Positions 17,127 through 46,620 of a stretch of 64,000 nucleotides of DNA are shown piece after piece; the first letter of the stretch is position 1, and each line of letters opens with the position of its first letter. A model generated the notes under the pieces. That model worked only from the letters and a program-made list of their open reading frames with translations. It did not search any database and was not told the origin of the DNA. The stretch is from Candidatus Aenigmatarchaeota archaeon (GTDB lineage: Archaea; Aenigmatarchaeota; Aenigmatarchaeia; CG10238-14; SCSR01), in assembly GCA_038998625.1 (NCBI GenBank), contig JAWADS010000001.1, positions 30,110-94,109 on the forward strand, given 5' to 3'. A program made the translations under genes and the position numbers.

Positions 17127-17246
17127 TGGGGTCGGAGGGATTCGAACCCTCGTTAACCGGTTGCTTCTTACTTCTCATAGCTCCATATACTGGAGCCGGT
17201 TTTCTAATCATGGAAGATGTCTTAGACCTAGCTAGACCACGACCCC
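17127..17246 (-). tRNA. tRNA-Trp(CCA) with two introns (~25/26: 17202-17218; 37/38: 17162-17189)
   Basis: GGGGTCG/CGACCCC acceptor stem, ACCGG/CCGGT anticodon stem, TTCGAAT T-loop; 75 nt after intron removal. Confidence 0.92.
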
Positions 17247-17347
17247 AGCCACCAGTGGGATTCGAACCCACAACCCCCTGATAACTTTCTGTCATTTTTC
17301 CAGTTATCAGGTACAAGTCAGGTGCTCTACCGTTGAGCTATGGTGGC
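17247..17347 (-). tRNA. tRNA-Thr(TGT) with 29-nt intron at 37/38 (17283-17311)
   Basis: GCCACCA/TGGTGGC acceptor stem, CCTGA/TCAGG anticodon stem, U73 discriminator. Confidence 0.92.
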
Positions 17348-34234: not shown

Positions 34235-34378
34235 TGCAGGGGGTGGGATTTGAACCCACGAAGGCACTAAGCCACGAGGTTTCTTATCTTCATCCTATCA
34301 GAGCTCAAGTAAACCTCTATCTTGAGCTTCGCGCAACTTTAAAATCTCGCGCCATTGACCAGGCTAGGCGACCCCTGC
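34235..34378 (-). tRNA. tRNA-Leu(CAA) with introns at 30/31 (34328-34345) and 37/38 (34281-34320)
   Basis: GCAGGGG/CCCCTGC acceptor stem, long variable arm, BHB cgcg-ag|a...cgcg-aa|g; 86 nt mature. Confidence 0.92.
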
Positions 34379-46453: not shown

Positions 46454-46474
46454 TTTTTATTAATTTGATTATAT

Positions 46475-46591
46475 AGCCCCGTCGTCTAGCGGCCAAGGAC
46501 GCGAGGCTTTGGATATTTTATCTAAAGCTCTGATTTGATTTCGATGAAGAGAAGAAACCTCGAAACCGCAGTTCGAATCTGCGCGGGGCTA
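46475..46591 (+). tRNA. tRNA-Gln(TTG) with 44-nt intron at 37/38 (46513-46556)
   Basis: AGCCCCG/CGGGGCT (A1-U72), CGAGG/CCTCG, BHB cttt-gg|a...gaag-aa|a; 73 nt mature. Confidence 0.93.
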
Positions 46592-46620
46592 TTTTTTTAT
46601 TTTTTGATAAAAATAATTAT

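Follow-up and report, generated by a model that had tools for sequence, protein, structure and literature searches.

Archaeal box C/D guide RNAs are built around the consensus boxes CUGA (D and D') and RUGAUGA (C and C'), and a guide of this kind is harboured by the intron of tRNA-Trp, which reaches about 105 nt at its upper size. According to the accessible text of a review, the Trp intron has a median length of 65 nt and nests a full bipartite C/D and C'/D' sRNA with two guides. In Haloferax volcanii, according to reviews, it acts on the precursor and has two targets, leading to Cm34 and Um39; reviews of 2014 and 2024 single it out as the unique tRNA intron with a modification guide of its own. 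The elongator tRNA-Met of Nanoarchaeum equitans also has an intron, of 66 nt, with a C/D-like stable RNA whose D box matches the consensus and whose C box comes close to it, its target being unassigned in the accessible part of that report (Randau 2012, PMC3491384). Canonical archaeal C/D sRNAs consist of two motif pairs and two spacers of about 12 nt, and the engineered halfmer guide MMG5 is active and specific in vitro with L7Ae, Nop5 and fibrillarin (PMC9670817).

The locus described here lies in a window of 64,000 nucleotides, the whole stretch of DNA that was analysed, from a Candidatus Aenigmatarchaeota archaeon. The source genome (G000) comprises 469 kb in 19 contigs with 31% G+C, is estimated to be 92% complete, and contains an archaeal SRP RNA. 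Among the listed sequencing runs, every one in which a quarter or more of the words sampled from the 64-kb stretch occur is labelled hot-spring metagenome. Nine runs are listed, all as Logan contigs: eight are guessed to be DNA (hot-spring metagenome), one is of unknown kind without an organism label, and none is on record as an RNA run. The minus strand from 17347 to 17247 is a tRNA (Rfam RF00005, 64.6 bits), which a default ARAGORN run missed. With introns allowed, ARAGORN reports tRNA-Thr(tgt) and places an intron of 29 nt behind nt 37 [i(37,29)]; this intron reads CCTGATAACTGGAAAAATGACAGAAAGTT on the minus strand (17311–17283). The anticodon TGT is at 17315–17313 on the same strand, and a tRNA-Trp gene adjoins the Thr(UGU) gene with zero spacer. 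The features of the gene are the following, the homologs cited being those described below.

17247..17347, minus strand: tRNA-Thr(UGU) gene, 101 nt including the intron (Rfam RF00005, 64.6 bits; ARAGORN -i).
17312..17322, minus strand: tRNA nt 27–37, stem 5' strand CCTGA and loop CTTGTA (anticodon stem 100% paired in 32 sequences).
17283..17311, minus strand: 29-nt intron at the canonical 37/38 position (ARAGORN; A38, at 17282, invariant in 32 homologs).
17303..17311, minus strand: putative antisense guide, intron nt 1–9 (9/9 Watson-Crick pairs with intron nt 27–29 and tRNA nt 38–43).
17299..17302, minus strand: box D'-like TGGA (its GA gives the tandem sheared pairs and is invariant in 32/32 homologs).
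17296..17298, minus strand: D'-C' linker AAA, which with AU of C' makes the terminal loop of the K-loop.
17289..17295, minus strand: box C'-like ATGACAG (AUGA invariant in 32/32; C5-G and A6-U pairs with D').
17283..17288, minus strand: intron tail AAAGTT, with two alternative pairings (splicing fold, guide fold).
17277..17286, minus strand: strand targeted in the 10-bp duplex, with the 3' splice site (17283|17282) inside it, from complementarity and the minimum free energy (MFE) fold.
17281..17281, minus strand: U39, predicted 2'-O-methylation site, paired with the fifth base upstream of D'.

The first-pass annotation, made from the letters of this DNA, had proposed a 10-nt pairing across the 3' splice site, and intron nt 1–10 are indeed the exact reverse complement of intron nt 26–29 together with tRNA nt 38–43 (17286–17277). 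It had further proposed that the non-consensus boxes compensate each other, that counting five nucleotides from TGGA leads to U39, and that U39 is the second known target of the euryarchaeal Trp-intron guide, all of which is borne out. The stem of the K-loop is formed by intron nt 9–11 with nt 21–23 (C-G, U-A and G-C); G12.A20 and A13.G19 follow these Watson-Crick pairs and enclose a 5-nt loop, and positions 1–2 of D' covary with positions 5–6 of C' in the homologs. Intron A5 (17307) is the fifth base upstream of TGGA and the partner of U39 (17281), and the register is the same in 32/32 homologs. For Haloferax, the reviews, in their accessible parts, name C34 and U39. The guide is a copy of the anticodon-stem 5' strand plus 4 nt, and the two strands compete for nt 39–43. 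In the splicing fold, nt 25–27 of the intron pair with tRNA nt 34–32 (the central helix of the bulge-helix-bulge, BHB) and the 3' bulge consists of the final TT and A38; the guide fold instead pairs nt 27–29 with the guide. The MFE fold of the 101-nt precursor (-39.6 kcal/mol, z = -4.69, with 0/200 shuffles as stable) has the 10-bp guide duplex instead of the anticodon stem. Since this fold contains the duplex and the structure is conserved by compensatory changes in 32 distinct homologs, it is more than a chance arrangement.

Among known systems the intron most resembles the pre-tRNA-Trp intron of euryarchaea (Haloferax volcanii; Pyrococcus sR50), as far as the accessible sources describe it, in its 37/38 position, its C/D-type motifs, its complementarity to its own tRNA and its predicted target at nt 39; as in the Trp type, the duplex of guide and target takes in intron bases. 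It differs from the Trp intron in being only 29 nt long, with one K-loop and one guide, in residing in tRNA-Thr(UGU) of a DPANN lineage, and in having non-consensus but compensated boxes. With the N. equitans Met intron it shares the presence of C/D elements in a DPANN tRNA intron other than Trp; that intron, in the accessible part of its description, is 66 nt long and is concerned with neither Thr nor nt 39, whereas the Thr intron is a single K-loop. Compared with canonical bipartite C/D box sRNAs, it likewise combines a K-turn or K-loop of tandem G.A pairs, an antisense element upstream of D' and encoded L7Ae, Nop5 and fibrillarin, but it has one motif pair and its box positions outside GA/UGA vary freely. 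The D'-like box TGGA has a GA able to form the tandem sheared pairs, the C'-like box ATGACAG conforms to the structural core and not to the letter of the consensus, and the antisense element of 9–10 bp lies directly upstream of D' with its predicted target at N+5. The Thr module does not have two C/D motif pairs and two spacers; no second C/D motif was found in the Thr gene, and no Rfam C/D family matched at E<=1. The intron is therefore classed as working like a C/D guide and not as a textbook member. In architecture it matches the engineered K-loop guide MMG5, in which a 5' guide also directly precedes one K-loop and the N+5 rule applies (PMC9670817). MMG5 is synthetic, was used in trans on oligonucleotides with Sulfolobus proteins and has a 12-nt guide, in contrast to the Thr module, which is natural, lies in its own predicted substrate and has a guide of 9–10 nt. 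What is new relative to the published Trp and N. equitans Met introns is the Thr host, the length of 29 nt, the single K-loop and the compensated boxes. No report of a guide in a tRNA-Thr intron or of K-loop introns in DPANN was found in the literature searched, which lay mostly outside subscription journals.

Homologs were sought by BLAST of 61 relatives and then with a covariance model (R1) over all 118 genomes of the order; of its matches, the 30 best and 20 further regions were inspected. The same intron module is present in the Thr(UGU) gene of at least 37 of the 118 genomes, in seven families, and these 37 genomes give 32 distinct sequences over nt 27–43. All counts were made on a MAFFT alignment of nt 27–43 (A3), because a MAFFT alignment of whole genes (A1) put one row wrong and a model-fitted alignment (A2) misplaced several rows with long inserts. 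In one row (L073), for which the parser picked another D', the box was assigned by homology (ACGA/ATGAATG). The D'-C' linker is 3–7 nt long among the relatives of the order. The module also occurs in another order, within a sample of 151 genomes of the class that includes G227 and G229. In G227 the linker is 12 nt long and has its own small stem, which gives a true K-turn. In G229 (L091, C31:5224-5370) the Thr(UGU) intron has 75 nt and two modules in tandem, in the order guide-TTGA-stem-ATGAAAT, 12-nt spacer, CTGA-CATTT-ATGAAGA; such an intron may connect half-mer with bipartite C/D RNAs. Three genomes (G111, G040 and G110; L068, L070 and L062) have Thr(UGU) introns of 20–22 nt without a K-loop that keep the 5' stretch antisense to nt 38–43, which looks like decay of the module. 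In G052 the intron, of 20 nt, is also without the K-loop module, in G008 and G017 the Thr(UGU) gene has no intron, and in G034 the intron is at another place. The module has thus been lost repeatedly (G052, G110, G111, G040, G008, G017 and G034) and is therefore dispensable, which is a point against its being a methylation guide. In G007, a Thr(UGU)-like gene is divided between the ends of contigs C14 and C1 (halves L011 and L028), with the break inside the intron; an assembly break is a more likely explanation than a split tRNA.

With moderate confidence, and judging from sequence and structure prediction, we favour the view that the Thr(UGU) intron is a minimal box C'/D' guide with a single K-loop (monopartite, or "half-mer"), directing Nm39 on the unspliced precursor. 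This view draws on two mutually exclusive folds, a covarying K-loop, a N+5 register and three encoded core proteins, all of which are observed. Intron nt 1–9 or 1–10 would displace the 5' strand of the anticodon stem and pair with tRNA nt 43–38 and the last three or four intron bases. TGGA and ATGACAG, just downstream, would close into a K-loop, with tandem sheared G.A pairs followed by G-C, U-A and C-G. L7Ae would bind this K-loop and Nop5-fibrillarin would dock there, after which fibrillarin could methylate the 2'-OH of U39, the base opposite the fifth guide position, either in cis or between two precursor molecules. Methylation would precede splicing: the RNA would have to return to the cloverleaf and its bulge-helix-bulge before the splicing endonuclease could take out the intron. 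Against such a guide count the short duplex of 9–10 bp, its location in cis, and a target strand tethered to C' by only 3–4 nt, which may limit the access of fibrillarin to nt 39. It also counts against a guide with a single K-loop that natural archaeal C/D guides are bipartite. A fully single-site RNP was active in vitro but not site-specific, according to the accessible part of that study (PMC1635284). A monopartite guide is nevertheless feasible, since engineered monopartite guides are active in vitro (PMC9670817).

The two folds of the precursor were compared over the 32 sequences. The nine guide pairs are 91.8% paired, and five of the nine have changed on both sides. Guide and K-loop taken as one structure show 89.6% pairing, where column shuffles give 65.8% (0/500 reach the real value), and the covariation score of this structure is 0.594, against 0.174 when shuffled and at most 0.134 with the partners slid by 1–3 columns, a large share of this signal being common to the anticodon stem, itself 100% paired. 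The last bases of the intron are more telling. Guide nt 1–3 pair with I-3 to I-1, the 3' end of the intron. The pair between guide nt 2 and I-2 is U-A in 14 sequences, G-C in 9, A-U in 8 and another combination in 1, and that between nt 3 and I-1 is C-G in 18, A-U in 12 and another in 2 (n=32 for both). The 32 sequences come from related genomes and are not independent, so that counts of this kind exaggerate how many evolutionary events took place; the variety of pair types is more reliable. In the splicing fold, I-1 and I-2 are unpaired bases of a 3-nt bulge, and their covariation with the guide is explained neither by the cloverleaf nor by the BHB. That they covary with the guide while being partnerless in the splicing fold shows selection for the alternative fold, with the unspliced precursor as the substrate. 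The first-pass annotation had arrived at a precursor substrate from the intron bases in the duplex, and the covariation of I-1 and I-2 strengthens that view.

The splicing fold is conserved as well. The intron has a 4-bp helix and two 3-nt bulges with the splice sites; this central BHB helix (nt 32–35 with I-3 to I-6) is 86.7% paired in the 32 sequences, and in the intron described here it has three pairs and G35.A. An inner helix h' (intron nt 2–4 with C' nt 5–7) was considered as a conserved element and rejected, being 62% paired versus 58% in shuffles; this weak inner helix points to the relaxed hBH form. Two conserved folds that exclude each other could also mean that the K-loop, once bound by L7Ae, serves as a checkpoint of folding or splicing, the 10-bp helix holding the precursor in a non-spliceable and non-functional state until it is released, with neither methylation nor a role for fibrillarin. 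Nearest-neighbour energies, which prefer the guide fold in 24/32 sequences, fit this explanation, as does the fact that one K-loop suffices for L7Ae and is atypical for a guide RNP. L7Ae also binds many RNAs that are not guides, as reported in the accessible part of a further study (PMC5539422). We consider such a checkpoint unlikely, as it leaves two features unexplained: the distance from D' to the target, which does not drift over 32 sequences despite indels elsewhere, and the N+5 position on the wobble base 34 in unrelated modules of other tRNAs.

In all 32 sequences, guide nt 5 lies opposite nt 39 and is paired with it, nt 39 being a U or a G in 12 sequences each and a C in the other 8. 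The register among the Thr genes was inherited from one ancestor and is therefore essentially one observation, weak alone, and a constant N+5 register could follow from hairpin geometry alone. Modules of the same design that place N+5 on nt 34 in unrelated tRNAs are stronger support for the register than the Thr genes. By script they were found in tRNA-Leu(CAA), tRNA-Gln(UUG) and two Trp genes of relatives (N+5 = C34), and by hand reading in Met (C34), Arg(UCU) (U34) and Lys(UUU) (U34). The tRNA-Leu(CAA) at 34235–34378 of the window (minus strand), called Lys by ARAGORN, has two introns by hand reading; the one at 37/38 has a CTGA/ATGAAGA K-loop with N+5 at C34. The tRNA-Gln(UUG) at 46474–46592 (plus strand) has a 44-nt intron with the same CTGA/ATGAAGA K-loop and N+5 at U34; this gene is below the Rfam gathering threshold and is labelled 'Stop(tta)' by ARAGORN. 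Elsewhere in G000 (contig C13:1784-1899), an elongator tRNA-Met(CAU) has, by hand reading, a 45-nt intron with TTGA/ATGATAA and an 11-nt linker, whose guide pairs with nt 31–36 and places N+5 at C34. Met introns of a similar kind, of 31 nt, are present in G040, G111, G110 and G054. A review describes nt 34, in the tRNAs for Trp, Met and Leu, as the classical C/D-guided site of Pyrococcus and Haloferax.

The neighbouring tRNA-Trp(CCA) gene of the window (17127–17246, minus strand), mislabelled Leu by ARAGORN, seems to have two introns, with a C-like ATGATTA in the first and an ATGA in the second. Together they may give a K-turn with CTTC/GAAG as its closing stem, or else a K-loop may arise that uses AAGA of the D arm. 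The stretch upstream of the ATGA of the second intron is antisense to nt 30–36, which places N+5 on C34.

The three core proteins of a guide RNP are encoded in the genome itself, on contig 4 of G000: fibrillarin (239.6 bits), Nop5 (229.2 bits), whose gene adjoins that of fibrillarin, and L7Ae (TIGR03677 equivalog, 178.6 bits). Fibrillarin and Nop5 are retained in 115 of the 118 genomes of the order, which speaks against a checkpoint without fibrillarin, though their retention would be expected anyway. With fibrillarin this widespread, there is no contrast between its presence and that of the module to make use of. A strict regular expression for free-standing bipartite C/D sRNAs gave 0 matches in the genome and 0 in ten shuffles too; the pattern says little, being too strict.

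The K-loop itself is conserved in a characteristic manner. GA of D' and AUGA of C' are invariant in 32/32 sequences. At the outer position D'1:C'6 the pair is U-A in 15, A-U in 9, C-G in 5, G-C in 2 and another combination in 1, so that the covariation of TGGA with GACA proposed as a check by the first-pass annotation is seen in the homologs, with pairing in 31/32 and four pair types. D'2:C'5 is a standard pair in 20/32, and a hand tally of the remaining 12 gives U.U in 9 and A.A, C.C and C.A in 1 each; U.U is the pair of the consensus C/D boxes at this position. Twelve D'/C' combinations were seen, TGGA/ATGACAG among them, and positions 1–2 of D' occur as CT, TT, TG, TA, AA, AG, TC, GT, AC, AT and CA, covarying with C'. 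Compensatory double changes can be followed within genera, between TGGA/ATGACAG and the TTGA/ATGATAG of the sister genome in g1 and between TAGA/ATGATAA and AAGA/ATGATTT in g31. Invariant G.A and A.G pairs and a U ahead of the GA, next to a stem that is free to covary, are the signature of a kink-turn or K-loop and differ from an ordinary hairpin. The covariation agrees with this fold, and the K-loop and the guide fold are very probably real and under selection. It is accordingly hard to see here a protein-free alternative helix, in which the 5' antisense copy would stabilise or mask the precursor and the GA/UGA hairpin would have no role with L7Ae. The duplex alone does account for much of the predicted stability, and the loose motif NNGA...RUGANNN is unspecific, with 490 matches genome-wide. 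This explanation is highly improbable all the same, since GA and AUGA stay invariant in 32/32 while the flanking pairs covary, a pattern of tandem sheared G.A pairs and a flipped-out U that an ordinary hairpin would not show, and since the motif is enriched in tRNA genes (7 matches versus 1.3 expected by length).

The excised, possibly circularised intron might instead act in trans on another RNA, for instance rRNA, in which case the match to its own tRNA would be a by-product of intron origin. In favour of this, stable circular forms are common among the tRNA introns and C/D sRNAs of archaea (as published), and the Thr intron of G229 has a second module with an unrelated 12-nt spacer. Action in trans is barely credible all the same, for the guide changes along with the anticodon stem and the intron 3' end in every lineage, and the mature tRNA would give just 6 bp. 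An rRNA target of the guide was considered and rejected by argument: the guide covaries with the tRNA, and a conserved rRNA site could not track it.

Returning to the monopartite guide, its wider form is that Aenigmatarchaeota-type DPANN use natural monopartite C'/D' RNPs, with the smallest guides known (introns of 28–33 nt) placed inside their substrates, acting on nt 39 of Thr(UGU) and, in Trp, Met, Leu, Gln, Arg and Lys, on nt 34; the precursor would be a two-state switch that enforces methylation before splicing. We hold this wider form to be evenly balanced between true and false. As the box positions outside GA/UGA are free to covary, C/D finders based on the consensus would miss such RNAs. 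If true, these modules would be the natural counterpart of the engineered half-mer guides, a layout thought to be an in vitro construct, and would offer a simple model of how one RNA can alternate between folds for modification and for splicing. They would also provide a selective reason to keep tRNA introns in extremely reduced genomes of 0.5 Mb, and self-guiding introns may then be a general strategy throughout one entire DPANN lineage.
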